The position numbers are program-made. A stretch of DNA of 62,884 nt, filler included, from Acidimicrobiia bacterium (GTDB lineage: Bacteria; Actinomycetota; Acidimicrobiia; Spongiisociales; JAHEDJ01): NCBI GenBank assembly GCA_029210695.1. It is 3 parts of 3 records of this genome, joined end to end, with 100 filler letters (N's around TTAATTAATTAA, not from the genome) between each part and the next. Parts side by side here need not be neighbours in the genome. Positions count along the whole stretch, not along the records: positions 1 to 24,618 come from JARGFH010000052.1; 2 more parts are not named here. One strand, written 5' to 3'. This document shows positions 6,001 to 15,000 of the stretch, piece after piece; position 1 is the stretch's first letter, and every line of letters starts with the position of its first letter.

Positions 6001-9000
6001 GCCGTGGGTATCCACCGCCTCGACCAGTGCGAGGTCCACGAATACCGTAAGGGGTATTTCTACGCGATGACCACCGCCGAAGTAGAAAGCCGGATCACTG
6101 TCCACGACATCGTCGTCGACCGACTACCCGAGATGCTGCAGAAGGAGCCCGACAGGTGGCACCGATTCGTACAGAGACTGAATTCGATCGCACTCAGGCA
6201 GCGCTGAGCCCGCAGGGTCTGACGCTTCCACTACCACGCGGCGATATAGGCATCACTGTCGCCGACGGTGTGGAGGCGACGCCGACCGGCCAGCGACTCC
6301 TCGCCCTTCTCGTCAACGTGCTCGCCCGCATGAAGGGCGTGGTCGACACAGTCCACATCAACACAACCGCCGATCCGTTCGTTTTGCCTGGCACCCCGCT
6401 CAGCCCCGGCCATCTGAACGACGGTCTGGCCACCTTTGTCAGATCGCTCAACTGGATTGGCAGCCGACACGACGCGGAGTTGAGCTTCGAACCACCAGAC
6501 GACGCTGTGGTCCAGATCGGCATCGGCACCAATCCCGGCTCGGCCGACCTCGTCGTCGCCTGCGACGCATGGCGAGCCCTGCTAGGGGCAGCTGGCGACC
6601 AAGCGAGTTGGGAGACTGCGAACCCGATCGGCGCGGCCCTCGCTGCGGTCGTCACCGCCGCCGAGACATTCAAGGCAATCATCGCCGGCAACGGCGGGAG
6701 GAATACGACACCAGCACCCCCCGACTTCATCTACTCCGCCTTCAACTACGGGGTCGACGACAGCGCCGAGATCGGGCCCGACGTGTACAAGTTGGAGCTC
6801 CAGGACGTTGCCATCGCGGGTTGCGGCGCTGGTGGGTCCGGCACAGCCTTCATCCTCGGCATGCACCCCAGACTCTCCGGCACGATCGATCTCATCGAGC
6901 CCGGAATCCACAAGGTATCGAACATCAACCGCTACCTGCCAGCACTCGCTGGCGACGTCCACACCCCACGCCACAAGCTTTCCTCGATCGCTGATCACCT
7001 GGCCCGCACAGCACCCGCGTTGGACCTCGCCCTCCATCCGCGGCCCTGGGAGCAACTAGACCGGCATCCATGGTCAACAGTAGTCTCCGCCGTCGACACC
7101 GTCGAAGCCAGATGGCAAATCCAACAGCGCACACGCAGCGACGCCGTCATCATCGACCTCGCAGTTAATGACCTCCTCTACTCCGTTCTCCGCGTCGTTC
7201 CAGGTGGCCGCTGCCTGTTCTGCAAACACCCGTTCGACCCCGACCTGGCCGTCAATCAACGCGCACTCCGGTGGGGTGTGCCTCTCGTGACGATCAAGGA
7301 GTGGAGTTCCGCCAACAGACCGGTCGACGAAGCGATGATCCGCTCACTTGCTCACACCCAGAACCGGCCCCCGGAGGACTTCGATGATCTCCTCGGGATT
7401 CTCTTCACCAACACTCCGGCGCTGCTCGAGTGTGGATCGACGTCACTCCGGGCGGACGTCCCGAGCCAAGCCCCCATCCTTCCACTCGCCACGACCGCCG
7501 TTGCCATAGTCGGCGCCGCAGAGGTCATCAAGCACGTCATTGGGCTCCCACCCCTCGACAATTGGCTCGCCCATGACCTCCGGCGAAACCCAACTGGTCC
7601 GTGGTCCACCTACCGCGCGCCGATCCAGGACTGCCCACACCACTGACGGCCGCAGCGGTGTCGTGCAGCAAACGCTTCGAGCACGTCTTGGAGCCTACTA
7701 TCAACGCTGCAACCGGTCCCTCCGGAACCGTCCGCAACCGATCACTCCGGCCGGGACACCTACTATCGCAGCGGGACTGTCCGATGAACGATGGCTCAAG
7801 GCGGATCAGCGGCAGCAGGCCGTCAGCGTGGGGTTCCAACCGAAACCTCCTGATCCGTAGATGGCCAAGCGGCGTCCGTGAGCGTCCACATCCGTCCATA
7901 CATGGTTCAGCAGCGGGCCTCCGTTTCCACCAGTATCCACACACGGCCGCCGCGGTCCACCCCGAATGGCTCCCAAGTTGGCTCCCAGCGGAGGGGGGCT
8001 GACAAGTGTTGTGCAGCAGAGATGCTGGCCTCCACGGTGGCCCACACATGGCGCGGAACGTCTGGTTGGGGGCGGCGGCGCATCGCCGGTTATGCGCCTT
8101 GCCAGCTTGGTTCCTAGTGTCGGTACTCCAAAGGGGAGCAGCATGGGCGGCACCCGGTTACGAGACCCGCACCCGTGGCGGCGCGTGTCGTACGCGAAGT
8201 CGTACGCGACAGAGCGGTCGCTATCGGTCTCGCGGCGGGCGCCGCAGCATCTCGAGCAACACGGCAAGAAACGCCGCGGTCTGCTCCGGAGAGGCCTCGT
8301 TCGCGACCCGGCGGATGGCGTAGCCGATGGACGCGTTGTTGTCTTGCTCGCTCCGCACCCACTCGATAACCCGCTCCAGATCAAGGGGACGGTTGCGCTG
8401 GTCGGGCCCGGACGCAGCTCGCTCCTGAGTACTGCCGCGCCCGCGGTCCGGGCGGTCCTCTCGCCAACCGCTGCGTTCGGACTGGACGGTGTCATGCGCG
8501 GCGAGCATCTCCAGTACCTCCCTGCGATGCGGTCGACGCTTGTCAGTGTCGCCGCCCATCTGCTCCCGGTCTTGGTCGACCGGAAGGTTCTCGCGGCGCT
8601 TGATCAGGATCGTTTGTCCGAACTCCAGCTCCGCCCACTGCCACTGGAACGGGCCTTGCCGCGCAGGTATCGGCTCGCCGAGGGTGCGCCGGACTCGCCC
8701 GAGGCCCGCGACCTGGAGCCCGTCGTCGGCGCTCAGTAGTGCGTCCGCTTGCGTCTTGGGCGCGGTCCAGGTCAGAAGATCAGGGTAGCGATGCCCGATG
8801 GTGCCCCCGCCGCCTGCGAGATCGGCCATGCGTCCAGCCTCGGAGGCAATGAGAGCGCTGTCCATGACAGGCACTGGCGGTTCGTCGGCAGCGGTAGCAC
8901 CGAGAAGGGCGCCAGCCATCGTCGCGATAGTGTCGGTGTCTGAGCCGATGGTGTTCGCGGCGGTGGCGAGCGACTCGGCGGGTCGTTCGTCGCACCAGGT

Positions 9001-12000: not shown

Positions 12001-15000
12001 GCTCCTCTGATGAGCCGAAAGCCAGGACGGCCATCGGTGAGGATGACCAGCTGATCTGGGGAAGGGCGGACCGGCGAGAGGATCCGCATGGGCACTCCTA
12101 TGGTCGGAGCCCGCTGCCCGGGCCCACATGGTCGCAACGATAGCATCAGCATGACCGTCCCTGTTGGCAGAACGACGAACGGGCGGCCCAGCACGAATAC
12201 GGAGCGCGAACACCTCCGCCCACATGGTGTCGACCCGATAGGGCGGTGATCGCCGACCGCGGCCTGGCGGGGAGTGCTTAGGAGTCAGCGCCGCTGCCCG
12301 TCGACCCGCCTTCCGCCTGCCAAGCGAGGAGGGATGCGACGGCGGTGAGAACGAGCACTGCGTCGCGCCTGGTCCAACTGATGGCGATCGTGTGTTGGTC
12401 GGCGTGTAGGGCGGCGCTGGAGAGCTGGAATAGCGCATCCGCCACCGTATAGATGCGGTCTAGTTTGGTGCGCAGCTGAGCCTTACCGGCTGCAAGCGAC
12501 TTACCGTCCGGCGATCGCCATAGCTGTTCGATCACTCTTCTCGCCGATGAGATGGAGTCTTCGTAGCGGCCCTCATTCAGAGCGCGGCGTGCCTTTCTCA
12601 GCTCGTCGGTCACTTGCCGGGTCCGGCGCCTCGGCGTCGCCGAGCGGGATGACGAGCGAGAACGCGTCTGCGAACCGAGCCTGATCGAGGACGGCGGCCC
12701 AGTGCAGCGCCGGGACTGTGAGGCGAGTCTGGGTTGTCATGCTCGTGAGATTCCGGTCCCCGGAGACGGCGTGGATGGCTGGGTCGATGATCACCGTCAG
12801 ATCACGACCGCCGCGCTGGCGCTCCAGTAGTTCGAGCTGTTCGCGAGTTAGGTCGAGGGGCCAGCTCAATCGCAGAGCTGAAGTTCGTCTGGCTGAGAAT
12901 GGTCGCGGAGGTCTGATGAGCGAGCCCGAGTTTCTGGAGTCCGGATCTGCTCAGCTCGACCATCACCATTGCGCCGCCGATCAGCTGTACATCGTCCTTC
13001 GGTGGCCGCAAACATAGGACCCGACAACGGAAACGGAGACGGTGACCACCGACGAAGGGGAACCCGTCCACGCTGAGGCCGTCGCCTGCAAGCTGGATCG
13101 TGCTAGCCACTTGCGACGTCTCCAAGCCACAGGGTCCGTCCTGCCGCCGCCAGTCGATCTCTCGACTCGGCGTAAACCGGCTGCACTCGGGCCACTGCGT
13201 CCCAGAAGCGGTTGCTGTGGTTCGGGTAGTGGGCGTGGGTGAGCTCATGGACAAGGACGTAGTCGACGAGAGTGGGTTGCAGTTGCAGGGTGGCCCAGTG
13301 GATGTTGAGGCGGCCATCGCGATACGAGCCCCAGCGGTACCCGAGGTCTCGCATCACGATGGCGAATTCGGGGACGTTGCAGCGTGAGGCCCACAGCCTG
13401 ACCCGCTTGCGGAGCCAGGAGGTTCCGGTGGCTCGGTACCAGGCGATGAGCGCGGCGGCACCGTCGGGCTCGTCACGGCGTAGGCACAGGCGTCCACCGG
13501 AGAGCCTCACCGCCATGTCCTGGTCGTCGACCAGCAGGAGCCGGTAGTTGCGGCCCAGGTAGCGGAAGCCCTCCCCGTTGACGAGCTGCTTGGGTGGCTG
13601 CACCGGCAGGAAATCAGCCTTCTCGATCAGCTTGCGGTGGATCCAGTCTTGTTTGCGGTCGATAAAGTCCCGCACCGGGTCGTCTGGGGTCCCTGCCGGA
13701 ACCGCTACCAGGAGTGAGCCGTCTCGGTCGATGGTGATCTCCATCGTCGACCGGGCGGGCCTTTCGCTCACGGCCACCTCGAGGCCAGCAACTTCGAGCA
13801 CGCGGTCGGTCATGTCGTCACCAAGAGTTGATGGTTGGCTTTGGACAGCTCGATCAGCCGGTCGGCGACCCGCTTGCAATGGTCGAGCGGGTACAGGCGG
13901 CTCTCGTCGAGACGCTGGACCACCTGCTTCCGCAGCTCGTCCTGGGCGTTGGCGTTCCCCCAAAAGCCGACAGTCCTCACCCGTCGGCGAATCATGTCGA
14001 CAAGTCCGGTCGTCACTTCGATCATCTGGTCACGCGCGACAGCCGCCTCGCCAAGTTCATCCTCGATCACGCCGAGGAATCGGAGGTCGATCTCGTCGAG
14101 ACCCGTTGCATCCGTTTCCCGGTCGGCTGTCGCATCATCAATCAGCTCGCCGATCGCGAGAGCGAGCTGATCCCATTTGCCCTCCAGTGCGTCGAGGACC
14201 TCGTCCAGCCGTTCCGACAGTTTCTTGTACCGGGCCGGGTCCTCGTAGTACTTCTCCAAGATGTGGTGGCGCAGGGCGTGTTCCATCTCCGACGCCTTCG
14301 CTCGCTCCGACGGCTGCCCTGCGACGTGCGTCTTGAAGTCGACGTCGGTGATCCGGATCGGGGGAATGGCCTGGGCGAGGTCGAGCACGGTGATATGTTC
14401 GTCGATCAGCTGTCGCACCTTCTCCCGATATAGCGACGGGTCGAACCCGCCGTTCCCTTGGTCCCGGTATCGCAGGCGCGTGTACAGCTGGATCTTCCCG
14501 AACAGCTTGGCGTCGGCAACGAACGGACGAGCTTCGGGTCGAGGCAACACGATGTCCAGGCTGACCAGGAACCGTTTGACATCGATGTCGAAGCGGGCTC
14601 GCAGCTCCGGATTGCCGAACAGGTCCACACAGAGTTCGATCACTCCCGGGTCATCGGCAAGGTCTATGCCGTGACCGGCCAAGAACTGGACGACACGCTG
14701 GTGGCGATCCGACAGCCGTCCGGCCTCTTCGGCGATGCTCCGCAGCGAACCGGCAGCGAGGTCGTCGAGCTTCCCGTCAGCGTCGGCGTAGGCTGCCAGG
14801 GCCTCGGTAAGGTGGTTGACAACCCCGTAGTAGTCGACCACCAACCCGTAGTCCTTGCCGTCGGCGGTTCGGTTGACCCGGGCGACCGCCTGCAGCAGCT
14901 CTGCCTGTTGGATGAGCCGATCCAGAAAGAGCACCTGGGCGACCGGTGCGTCGAAACCGGTGAGGAGCATCGATTTCACGATGAGCATCGCCACCGGTGA

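Follow-up and report, generated by a model that had tools for sequence, protein, structure and literature searches.

The window, which is the whole stretch of 62,884 nucleotides of Acidimicrobiia DNA analyzed here, consists at positions 1-24618 of a single contig, the remainder being spacer N and other contigs. Three minus-strand open reading frames were found in it, coding for 587, 230 and 503 amino acids, the last value referring to the longest ORF (10683-12194). A first-pass annotation had assigned the products to the Pfam families ADP_ribosyl_GH, DarT and UvrD, and all three matched again: the 587-aa protein with 108.2 bits over residues 45-363 (ADP_ribosyl_GH), the 230-aa protein with 80.3 bits (DarT), and the third protein with UvrD-helicase in its N-terminal and UvrD_C in its C-terminal domain. 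With PADLOC the values given earlier were also obtained, namely a score of only 25.8 bits for DarT and no model that matched the ARH protein; the helicase matched the GajB-like and NERD+UvrD models. The features of the locus are compiled below.

Features of the helicase-DarT-ARH locus in the window
Feature	Position	Strand	Evidence
darH-like helicase gene	10683..12089	-	Pfam, PADLOC, homology to E. coli/Salmonella module helicase
9-nt spacer, helicase stop (TAG) to DarT ATG	10674..10682	-	sequence
darT, DNA ADP-ribosyltransferase toxin, 230 aa	9981..10673	-	Pfam DarT, alignment, PDB profile match
4-nt overlap TTGA, DarT stop codon/ARH start codon	9981..9984	-	sequence
darG3-like gene, 587-aa ARH-family protein, predicted antitoxin	8221..9984	-	Pfam, homology, AlphaFold2 model
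ARH catalytic domain, residues 38-390	8815..9873	-	alignment, Foldseek, motif alignments
Conserved beta-strand domain, residues 400-465	8590..8787	-	alignments, model pLDDT
Variable low-complexity linker, residues 466-535, predicted disordered	8380..8589	-	pLDDT, alignment
C-terminal three-helix bundle, residues 536-587	8224..8379	-	model, domain folded alone

The three genes had been described as overlapping. This is the case for DarT and ARH, where the reported 4-nt stop/start overlap was seen again and the ARH gene begins with TTG and not with ATG, but helicase and DarT genes are separated by a gap, in which a ribosome-binding-like stretch (AGGTAGG) is found. The 4-nt overlap implies translational coupling, and the tight spacing given by gap and overlap suggests joint expression of all three genes, with translational coupling for the last two. 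Neither a sigma-70-like promoter nor an intrinsic terminator was found in 7900-12900. The module sits in a defence island with a T4SS coupling protein on one side and a TrwC relaxase on the other, its neighbours including a type I R-M system, SIR2, a PD-Lambda-2_B-like protein and BilC-like and ThiF genes, which bears out the conjugative-element and defence-island context proposed earlier.

The helicase carries a Walker A motif (GAAGSGKTT), a motif II (VDEAQDF) and a motif VI (HSAKGLEFD). Its most likely start is M36 of the longest ORF, giving a product of 468 aa, because the alignment with its orthologue from the E. coli/Salmonella module (44% identity, E 4e-139) begins there. The distance between motifs II and VI is about 170 aa shorter than in UvrD, and this shortened stretch is consistent with a UvrD-like SF1 helicase that lacks the 2B domain. 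A helicase-DarT1-NADAR locus had been noted on contig C179 of the same genome; it is indeed present (NADAR-DarT1, 252 bits), and its helicase is 28% identical to that of the window over the full length.

In the DarT protein, H40-F-T and E183 are invariant across an alignment of 25 DarTs, as had been claimed, and its identity of 26% to the genome's own DarT1 was reproduced. The sole PDB match of the DarT profile was DarT1 from E. coli C7 (8baq, E152A variant; E 3.4e-9), while no DarT2 structure was matched at E<=0.01. DarT1 residues H17, F18, R35, N48, R52, D54, S63, M71, F72, N104 and E152, whose catalytic roles are described in the accessible part of PMC11543638, correspond to identical residues in the window DarT (H40, F41, R59, N75, R79, D82, S92, M100, F101, N136 and E183). 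When the families were aligned with one another, Ser occupied the S63 column in 17/17 clade-A rows and Tyr in 9/10 DarT2 rows, and the D54 column holds Asp in 14/17 clade-A rows and a gap in all ten DarT2 rows. The column of N136, the base-coordinating residue, separates the families uncleanly, DarT2 rows having N in seven and H in three of 10 cases. In the tree, 15 further ARH-linked DarTs group with those of the window and of E. coli/Salmonella in a single clade (support 100/98) with guanine-specific DarT1 as its sister, and a second helicase-DarT-ARH clade nests together with DarT1, beside the genome's own helicase-DarT1-NADAR system. Since the clade is sister to DarT1 and DarT1-type catalytic residues are kept, guanine is the predicted target base of the window DarT.

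The 587-aa protein is 41% identical to the ARH protein of the E. coli/Salmonella module over residues 31-464 (E 5e-114), and its full-length AlphaFold2 model reached a pLDDT of 85.2 and a pTM of 0.78. Foldseek aligned the ARH domain of this model with MJ1187 (1t5j; E 1.8e-9, TMt 0.79) and further with ARH3, the Listeria ART-ARH immunity protein 8za7 and DraG (3o5t), and the ARH fold is confirmed. Across 32 ARH proteins that are 31-49% identical to the window protein, D49, E56, S98-D99-D100, G166-G-N-G169, R173, Q175-P-H177, T201-H202 and D349-T350-D351 are invariant, so that the invariance noted before for S98-D-D and D349-T-D351 is true of this larger set of residues. The adjoining beta domain contains invariant or nearly invariant residues (Y400-P401-D402, W406, G429, Q449-W450, G456-Q457 and R464) and is modelled with pLDDT 89-96; residues 400-465 gave no Pfam match at E<=10 and no Foldseek match at E<=0.001, and resemblance to TOBE is weak (TM 0.23). 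It is followed by a linker with pLDDT 29-50, whose alignment columns are unaligned and variable in length, and by helices at 536-545, 550-563 and 566-581. Folded alone, this three-helix bundle reached pLDDT 92-97; its G554 is nearly invariant, and its structure matches are generic helical ones only (Z<=7.4). It is a candidate partner-binding module. In the model, DarG3 is made up of ARH domain, conserved beta domain, disordered linker and three-helix bundle.

Homologue searches gave the counts reported before, 739 for DarT and 2543 for the long ARH protein, and 9 of the 12 best non-self ARH matches lie on a contig equal in size to one with a DarT match, in line with the frequent pairing claimed earlier. 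Among 55 related loci, from records titled Chloroflexota, Acidobacteriota, Alpha-/Gammaproteobacteria, Spirochaetia, Binatia and Actinomycetota, an ARH match was located downstream of DarT on the same strand in every case and a helicase match upstream of DarT in 53, the one-strand order described for a smaller set thus being kept in 53/55, and a 4-nt DarT/ARH overlap (ATGA/GTGA-type) was observed in 42/55. That the three genes are chance neighbours on a mobile island and not one system is therefore barely conceivable, as this reading can appeal to nothing more than defence islands being mosaic in general and is already contradicted by the order and strand kept in many phyla, by the recurrent overlap and by the equal-sized contigs that connect DarT homologues with ARH homologues.

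Coverage of the ARH domain is complete in 54/55 loci. In L052 and L054 DarT is truncated (57% and 34%) and the helicase lost while the ARH gene is whole, and 0/55 loci combine a whole DarT with a missing ARH gene, a decay pattern as expected of a toxin-antitoxin pair. In L041 and L043 DarT is whole and the ARH gene is split over two frames, which may reflect either an error in sequencing or genuine decay. Twelve records of ARH homologues are plasmids, and on a Ralstonia plasmid the ARH-paired DarT is 45% identical to the genome's NADAR-linked DarT1; closely related toxins are therefore found with a NADAR partner as well as with an ARH partner.

The subtype had been taken as undescribed, which no longer holds, as the available text of PMC13069673 (Nucleic Acids Res, 8 April 2026) describes a three-gene DarHTG from E. 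coli, composed of the helicase DarH, DarT and the ARH-like DarG3; the helicase is already covered in the accessible part of the December 2025 preprint. According to the same partial text, DarHTG (Liu-DS3), cloned in MG1655, defends against T4, T7, T5 and SSL_2009a, defence is lost when the active site of DarT or the ATP-binding site of the helicase is mutated, and construction of a DarG3 mutant was not achieved in E. coli. In those sections neither a base specificity nor a hydrolase assay is reported, and the DarT1-sister placement with its guanine prediction, the second clade nested with DarT1 and the DarG3 domain architecture were not found there. We detected the helicase-DarT-ARH module of E. 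coli/Salmonella, whose DarT is 36% identical to that of the window (E 4e-47), in 21/5426 complete E. coli genomes, a frequency that fits the '<0.5% of genomes' given in the accessible preprint text, and we infer that it is the published Liu-DS3.

We consider, with a probability of roughly 0.8, that the locus is a tripartite DarHTG-type toxin-antitoxin/abortive-infection module located in a conjugative element's defence island and that the ARH protein is its cognate antitoxin. Synteny, coupling, catalytic motifs and decay pattern support the earlier proposal that a third DarT type has ARH as its cognate antitoxin. DarT would mono-ADP-ribosylate a base in single-stranded DNA at the expense of NAD+ and so block replication, the target being, to judge from the catalytic-residue matches and the tree position, probably guanine N2 as for DarT1. 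The ARH domain, with its complete acidic metal-binding motifs, would hydrolyse the ADP-ribose-base bond and keep host DNA clean, while the beta domain and the three-helix bundle on its disordered tether may hold DarT, DarH or DNA. The helicase would be an obligatory third component, its ATP-binding site being required for defence in the E. coli system (PMC13069673, accessible sections), and might sense or unwind phage replication intermediates, thereby exposing the ssDNA substrate or releasing DarT.

It is unlikely that the module serves mainly as an addiction/stabilisation system of the conjugative element, or as a replication brake, and not against phages, with ARH still the antitoxin. Its position between T4SS coupling protein and TrwC relaxase and the 12 plasmid-borne records would suit such a role, as would DarTG2 control of replication and growth in M. 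tuberculosis (abstract of PMC12170906); a replication brake has been proposed for mycobacterial DarTG. However, the homologous system of E. coli type protected against phages once cloned, the window module is surrounded by defence genes (type I R-M, SIR2, PD-Lambda-2_B-like, BilC-like), and the E. coli copies are all chromosomal (21/21). The two roles are not mutually exclusive.

Quite improbable is a reading in which the ARH protein does not reverse DNA ADP-ribosylation, neutralising DarT by binding alone, via its C-terminal domains, or acting on another substrate, while the helicase could be the real DarT regulator. Such a substrate could be a protein bearing ADP-ribose, free ADP-ribose derivatives or a modification made by a phage. 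On RNA, guanosine ADP-ribosylation was not reversed by the ARH-like hydrolases tested, SCO5809 and human ARHs (accessible part of PMC11833690), so that, as far as this source goes, an ARH fold that hydrolyses guanine-ADPr would be without precedent; moreover, about 200 additional residues of the protein hold two conserved modules, and the added helicase of ietHAS is described in the sections of PMC13069673 as acting like an antitoxin regulator. Against this stand the invariance of all metal-binding and catalytic-motif residues at 31-49% identity, which argues for selection on catalysis, the 45% identity between DarT1-type toxins partnered by ARH and by NADAR, a proven guanine-ADPr hydrolase, and the DarG3 mutant that could not be built.

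Reversal of an ADP-ribosyltransferase mark by an ARH-fold hydrolase is shared between the predicted DarHTG-type module and DraT-DraG and the Listeria Lmo0067 (8za7) ART-ARH pairs. Tre1-Tri1 is likewise an ART-ARH effector-immunity pair. However, DraT-DraG and ART-ARH pairs modify proteins (arginine), whereas the window transferase belongs to DarT, a DNA-base ADP-ribosyltransferase family, and the window module includes a helicase. With DarTG2 (DarT2 and macrodomain DarG, thymidine-specific) it has in common that a DarT toxin goes with a hydrolase antitoxin bearing an extra C-terminal part, but it has no macrodomain and Ser stands in place of Tyr in the H-Y-E motif; in the phylum sample, which has 13 macro-linked loci, a helicase lay upstream in none of the eight whose upstream ORFs were checked. 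DarTG1 (DarT1-NADAR, guanine-specific; accessible part of PMC11543638) is closest in its toxin, by profile, tree and catalytic residues, and differs in its antitoxin, which is NADAR there and an ARH fold here. Of two DarTG1 plasmid loci, that from Acinetobacter (L083) lacks a helicase gene next to DarT, and in that from Xanthomonas (L082) the genes upstream of DarT are unnamed. The ARH protein holds the antitoxin position in a DarT module distinct from both. With DarHTG it shares the three components, their order, a UvrD-like helicase without 2B domain and a DarG3 antitoxin that, in the available account, resembles archaeal and eukaryotic ADP-ribosylglycohydrolases; the window member, known from sequence, is a distant orthologue in another phylum, carried by a conjugative element in a GC-rich genome.

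Three ORFs arranged head to tail on one strand (-), in the order helicase, DarT and ARH-family protein, make up the module. The helicase is likely to start at M36 (position 12089), because the alignment with its E. coli/Salmonella orthologue begins there. Pfam detected N- and C-terminal UvrD domains in the helicase, DarT (PF14487; 80.3 bits, curated cut-off 22.5) in the 230-aa protein and, as its sole family, ADP_ribosyl_GH (PF03747; residues 45-363, 108.2 bits, cut-off 26.2) in the 587-aa protein. PADLOC matched the helicase to GajB-like UvrD models and, as reported in the first-pass annotation, had no model for the ARH partner and gave DarT just 25.8 bits, and none of the three proteins exceeded an NCBIfam cut-off. 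The three genes had been described as overlapping, which holds for the DarT/ARH junction, where the DarT stop and the ARH start share 4 nt (TTGA), but not for the helicase/DarT junction, where 9 nt including AGGTAGG separate the helicase stop from the DarT ATG. No promoter or terminator was found in a scan of 7900-12900.

Features of the window's first contig, segments of its ARH-family protein and two plasmid-borne relatives of the module
Feature	Position	Strand	Remarks
T4SS coupling protein	85-1032	+	
HD-domain protein	1379-1915	+	
SIR2-like protein	2094-2936	-	
HTH + M78 peptidase protein	3384-4475	-	PD-Lambda-2_B match, 116 bits
BilC-like ORF	5602-6207	+	PADLOC 37 bits
ThiF/E1-like protein	6156-7646	+	496 aa
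ARH-family ORF	8221-9984	-	587 aa
DarT ORF	9981-10673	-	230 aa
Helicase, longest ORF	10683-12194	-	503 aa
YgjP-like metallopeptidase	13103-13963	-	
Type I R-M genes HsdR, HsdS, HsdM	13810-20796	-	
TrwC relaxase	20735-24124	-	
IS110 transposase	23832-24566	+	
Variable tail	ARH protein residues 1-37		
ARH domain	ARH protein residues 38-390		
Short connector	ARH protein residues ~391-399		
Conserved beta-strand domain	ARH protein residues 400-465		Y400-P-D402, W406, G429, Q449-W450, G456-Q457, R464; pLDDT 89-96
Disordered low-complexity linker	ARH protein residues 466-535		predicted
Three-helix bundle	ARH protein residues 536-587		G554 nearly invariant
L084, clade B locus	Ralstonia plasmid AP024098.1 2893-6877		
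L085, clade B locus	Streptomyces plasmid NZ_CP108532.1 3031-6841		

The module lies on C129, one of the 181 contigs of the 3.91-Mb assembly, which covers positions 1-24618 of the window. The window is a concatenation, in which N runs with the TTAATTAATTAA spacer (24619-24718) and then another contig follow, so that sequence past 24618 is not to be taken as linked context. The assignment of this region to a conjugative-element defence island was correct, since it carries a T4SS coupling protein, a TrwC relaxase, R-M genes and SIR2, PD-Lambda-2_B-like and BilC-like genes. The HD-domain, SIR2-like and PD-Lambda-2_B-like genes (1379-4475) are additional defence-type genes near the T4SS coupling protein. 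The BilC-like ORF is located directly upstream of the ThiF/E1-like gene and overlaps it, and the pair (5602-7646) may belong to a defence system of the Bil type, in which a ubiquitin-like protein is conjugated. Immediately upstream of the module, between it and the TrwC relaxase, a complete type I R-M set (HsdM, HsdS, HsdR) is followed by the YgjP-like gene (together 13103-20796, -).

The window system belongs, as a distant member, to a family whose description dates from 2026. The earlier annotation had proposed an undescribed third DarT subtype, but such a type, in which a helicase accompanies an ARH-like antitoxin, was published in April 2026: the accessible text of PMC13069673 (Nucleic Acids Res, 8 April 2026) presents Liu-DS3, or DarHTG, from E. 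coli, in which DarH is a UvrD-like helicase without domain 2B and DarT is the toxin. According to the same text, the E. coli system, the only one for which this is shown, has anti-phage activity that depends on the active site of DarT and on the ATPase of its helicase. In the December 2025 preprint of that paper the helicase was already present under the name TgaH, and the system was reported from less than 0.5% of E. coli genomes and from other phyla. Besides these two sources, no relevant literature on DarHTG or DarG3 was found; the string 'DarG3/DarT3' in a Vibrio cholerae preprint turned out to be an artefact of superscript reference numbers. In the accessible parts of earlier papers, the Aravind group (2022) listed "DarT-Macro/NADAR" as the only combinations and the Ahel group (February 2025) gave DarT antitoxins as macrodomain or NADAR proteins; no earlier DarT-ARH description was found in the available portions of the Aravind/Ahel-group papers, of DefensePredictor or of the Legionella ART survey.

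On Salmonella plasmid CP101356.1, genes for a helicase, a DUF4433/DarT protein and an ADP-ribosylglycohydrolase family protein occur in a row, and among 5426 complete E. coli genomes 21 (0.39%) have a chromosomal locus that matches the DNA of this module at 100% identity, for example at NZ_CP021722.1 3045297-3049097. We infer that this is Liu-DS3, the construct tested in PMC13069673, because its make-up fits and 21/5426 genomes fits the published '<0.5%'. Compared with the E. coli/Salmonella module, the window proteins displayed identities of 44% for the helicase (E 4e-139), 36% for DarT (E 4e-47) and 41% for the ARH protein (residues 31-464; E 5e-114). A Dickeya locus gave no blastn match in complete E. 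coli genomes.

The lower bounds given before for the number of homologues were reproduced, with 739 DarT homologues at E≤1e-5 and 2543 long-ARH homologues at E≤1e-10, and 9 of the 12 best non-self ARH matches were on contigs equal in size to the contig of a DarT match. A scan of one genome per species yielded 55 loci, in records titled Dehalococcoidia and other Chloroflexota, Acidobacteriota, Alpha- and Gammaproteobacteria, Spirochaetia, Binatia and Actinomycetota. In tblastn comparisons with the window's proteins, an ARH-domain match followed DarT on the same strand in all 55 loci (a mere fragment in L055) and a helicase match preceded it in 53, with remnants in L027 and L052, so that the helicase-DarT-ARH order, previously noted for a few loci of other phyla, is conserved in 53 of the 55. 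Matches to the first part of the C-terminal extension of the ARH protein were obtained in 53/55 loci, and the 4-nt DarT-stop/ARH-start overlap was present in 42/55. All three genes were single-frame with at least 87% coverage each in 42 loci, and the remaining 13 had frameshifts, truncations or contig ends. The homologue numbers and the many phyla among the loci show a family spread far outside E. coli. In L006 (2372-5971), a 1199-aa open frame ends in helicase homology limited to residues 192-503, and in L027 (4717-6675) a 652-aa open frame ends in DarT and the helicase remnant amounts to just 37 aa; these long frames may represent fusions or replacements or, in GC-rich DNA, may be spurious.

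The 587-aa protein is a member of the ARH/DraG family (PF03747) by score, fold and acidic metal motifs. Its best Foldseek matches were archaeal MJ1187 (1t5j; E 1.8e-9, TMt 0.79) and ARH3, in agreement with sequence-profile matches. Among 32 ARH sequences, D49, E56, S98-D99-D100, G166-G-N-G169, R173, Q175-P-H177, T201-H202 and D349-T350-D351 were invariant, so that the S98-D-D and D349-T-D351 motifs are intact as initially annotated, and the motifs, including the two acidic metal-binding ones, align with their counterparts in MJ1187, Lmo0067 and ARH3. The gene occupies the antitoxin position and appears from the junction to be translationally coupled to DarT. In two decaying loci, DarT coverage has fallen to 57% (L052) or 34% (L054) and the helicase is lost, with the ARH gene whole, and none of the 55 loci lacks the ARH gene while its DarT is whole. 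However, in L041 and L043 DarT is whole and the ARH gene is split over two frames, which may reflect assembly error or genuine decay and counts against the decay argument. The functional reading of the ARH protein as cognate antitoxin is sound, considering position, coupling, intact motifs and decay pattern. Also, according to the accessible text of PMC13069673, construction of a DarG3 mutant was not possible in E. coli.

The domain architecture of the ARH protein was derived from an AlphaFold2 model (pLDDT 85.2, pTM 0.78) and the alignment of the 32 sequences. The beta domain is common to the E. coli/Salmonella protein, whose alignment extends to residue 464. For residues 381-415, model confidence was higher in the full-length protein than in the fragment, an indication that the segment is packed against the ARH domain. 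The C-terminal 207 residues gave no Pfam match at E≤10, nothing in Foldseek at E≤0.001, no usable feature match in the ESM Atlas (structure rows with TM 0.23-0.29 to TOBE-like and other folds) and only generic helical-bundle matches with VIA-align (Z≤7.4, fragment residues 151-207), and no family or fold was assigned to the C-terminal parts by these four approaches. As VIA-align barely covered the beta domain, no new fold is claimed for it. By analogy with macrodomain DarG, which has a C-terminal DarT-binding domain according to the accessible part of PMC11543638, the C-terminal parts may bind DarT, DarH or DNA.

Regarding the toxin, H40 and E183 were confirmed by alignment as invariant among window-related DarTs, and E183 aligns to E152 of DarT1. 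The only PDB match of the DarT profile was E. coli C7 DarT1 E152A (8baq; E 3.4e-9), and no DarT2 structure was matched at E≤0.01. With the alignment anchored at the E152A position and residue roles taken from the accessible part of PMC11543638, DarT1 residues H17, F18, R35, N48, R52, D54, S63, M71, F72, N104 and E152 correspond to identical residues H40, F41, R59, N75, R79, D82, S92, M100, F101, N136 and E183, respectively, of the window DarT. In a cross-family alignment, the S63 column contained Ser in 17/17 DarTs of clade A (the clade of the window and E. coli/Salmonella DarTs) and Tyr in 9/10 macro-linked DarT2s, and the D54 column contained Asp in 14/17 clade-A DarTs (Asn in 3) and a gap in all 10 DarT2s. 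The N104 column (window N136) was rejected as a guanine-versus-thymine discriminator and is given little weight because it is not clean between the families, Asn being present in 17/17 clade-A DarTs and also in 7/10 DarT2s (His in 3/10).

In a maximum-likelihood tree of 34 DarTs, clade A comprised the window DarT, the E. coli/Salmonella DarT and 15 other ARH-linked DarTs (support 100/98) and was sister to a group of DarT1-NADAR DarTs and a second ARH-linked clade (clade B). Clade A and this group together were split from DarT2 (support 100/98); one Xanthomonas DarT1 row with a very long branch grouped with DarT2 and its placement is not trusted. Because of the DarT1-type residues and the position in the tree, guanine is the somewhat favoured target of the window DarT, given that the system works as described. 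Counting against guanine, ARH-like hydrolases tested in the accessible part of PMC11833690 did not reverse guanosine-linked ADP-ribose on RNA.

The same genome harbours a helicase-DarT1-NADAR locus, as had been pointed out (contig C179; L058: 675-3500, -; NADAR-DarT1 PF22397, 252 bits), and the 26% identity between its DarT1 and the window DarT was reproduced. The C179 helicase is 28% identical to the window helicase over its full length (E 2e-32), and its best plasmid matches (~40% identity) are located in clade B helicase-DarT-ARH modules of Ralstonia, Streptomyces sp. NBC_01220, Shinella and Rhodococcus, where their positions coincide with ARH and DarT matches. In DarT and helicase, clade B is closest to the NADAR-linked system of this genome. 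The Ralstonia clade B DarT is 45% identical to its DarT1; the Ralstonia ARH protein (600 aa) has only the ARH domain in common with the window protein (35%, residues 45-362), and the clade B C-terminal part (~240 aa) is different. DarT1-type toxins that are closely related can therefore have NADAR or ARH as partner, and homologous helicases go with both, which supports the idea that ARH and NADAR would reverse the same kind of adduct.

Among 401 sampled genomes of the phylum, DarT was detected in 22 genomes at 24 places. A macrodomain gene adjoins 13 of these, with no helicase upstream of DarT in the eight macro-linked loci checked, two places have the helicase-DarT-ARH arrangement (the window and L077), one has helicase-DarT1-NADAR, and eight were left without a partner class. 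The NADAR-DarT1 family was present in one of the 401 genomes, the window's own. In two loci with DarT-family genes, L073 (genome G077; 99 bits) and L078 (genome G350; 52 bits), no macro, NADAR, ARH or helicase Pfam match was obtained among the neighbouring ORFs tested, and these DarTs may have yet other partners. From 29 plasmid NADAR matches two loci were examined: in Acinetobacter (L083) a DarT-NADAR pair has no helicase gene beside DarT, and in Xanthomonas (L082) the genes upstream of DarT in a DarT1-NADAR locus are unnamed.

These data can be combined into a tentative mechanism. The ARH domain of DarG3 would cleave guanine-N2-ADP-ribose on ssDNA; DraG and ARH1 cleave ADP-ribosyl-arginine, which is a chemical parallel. 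On the helicase-linked DarT branch (DarT1 and the ARH-linked clades), ARH and NADAR would be interchangeable antitoxins, and the DarH helicase would be an older trait of the branch, not one that the E. coli system gained recently. DarT or DarH would be held by the conserved beta domain together with the tethered three-helix bundle and set free upon phage infection. To this reading as a whole we assign a probability of about 0.4. If true, cleavage of base-linked ADP-ribose by an ARH-family enzyme would be shown for the first time with DarG3.

As a discovery claim the module carries little weight, because a third DarTG type with ARH-like antitoxin and helicase is already published. The prediction of guanine as target, the placement of clade A as sister to DarT1, the existence of clade B, the DarT1-NADAR locus with a helicase and the now defined DarG3 domain architecture do not appear in the accessible literature, though the supplement of PMC13069673 (Table S5, Figures S5 and S10) may cover some of these five points. 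The module is useful as comparative material, through the breadth of the family, the guanine prediction, the DarG3 architecture, the nesting of the second ARH-linked clade with DarT1 and the homologous helicases that ARH-linked modules share with at least one NADAR-linked DarT module. These results bear on the way in which an ARH fold might undo the modification of a DNA base and on the role of the helicase.

Compared with known systems, the window module resembles DarHTG in its three co-oriented genes of the same order, in three proteins that are each homologous to their counterparts in the E. coli/Salmonella module, with DarTs of one clade, and in an ARH protein that resembles archaeal/eukaryotic ADP-ribosylglycohydrolases and not macrodomain or NADAR proteins. 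Similarly, its helicase is UvrD-like, is predicted to lack a 2B domain and seems to have an intact ATP-binding site; it carries Walker A (GAAGSGKTT) and motif II (DEAQD), and motifs II and VI are 168 residues apart versus 338 in D. radiodurans UvrD (~170 fewer). With DarTG1, the guanine-specific DarT1-NADAR type, it shares the equivalents of R52, D54, S63, M71, N104 and E152 in DarT, but its ARH protein has no NADAR match in Pfam. From DarTG2, the thymidine-specific macrodomain type, it differs in that the ARH protein has no Pfam Macro match and in that Ser replaces the Tyr of the H-Y-E motif throughout the clade-A DarTs.
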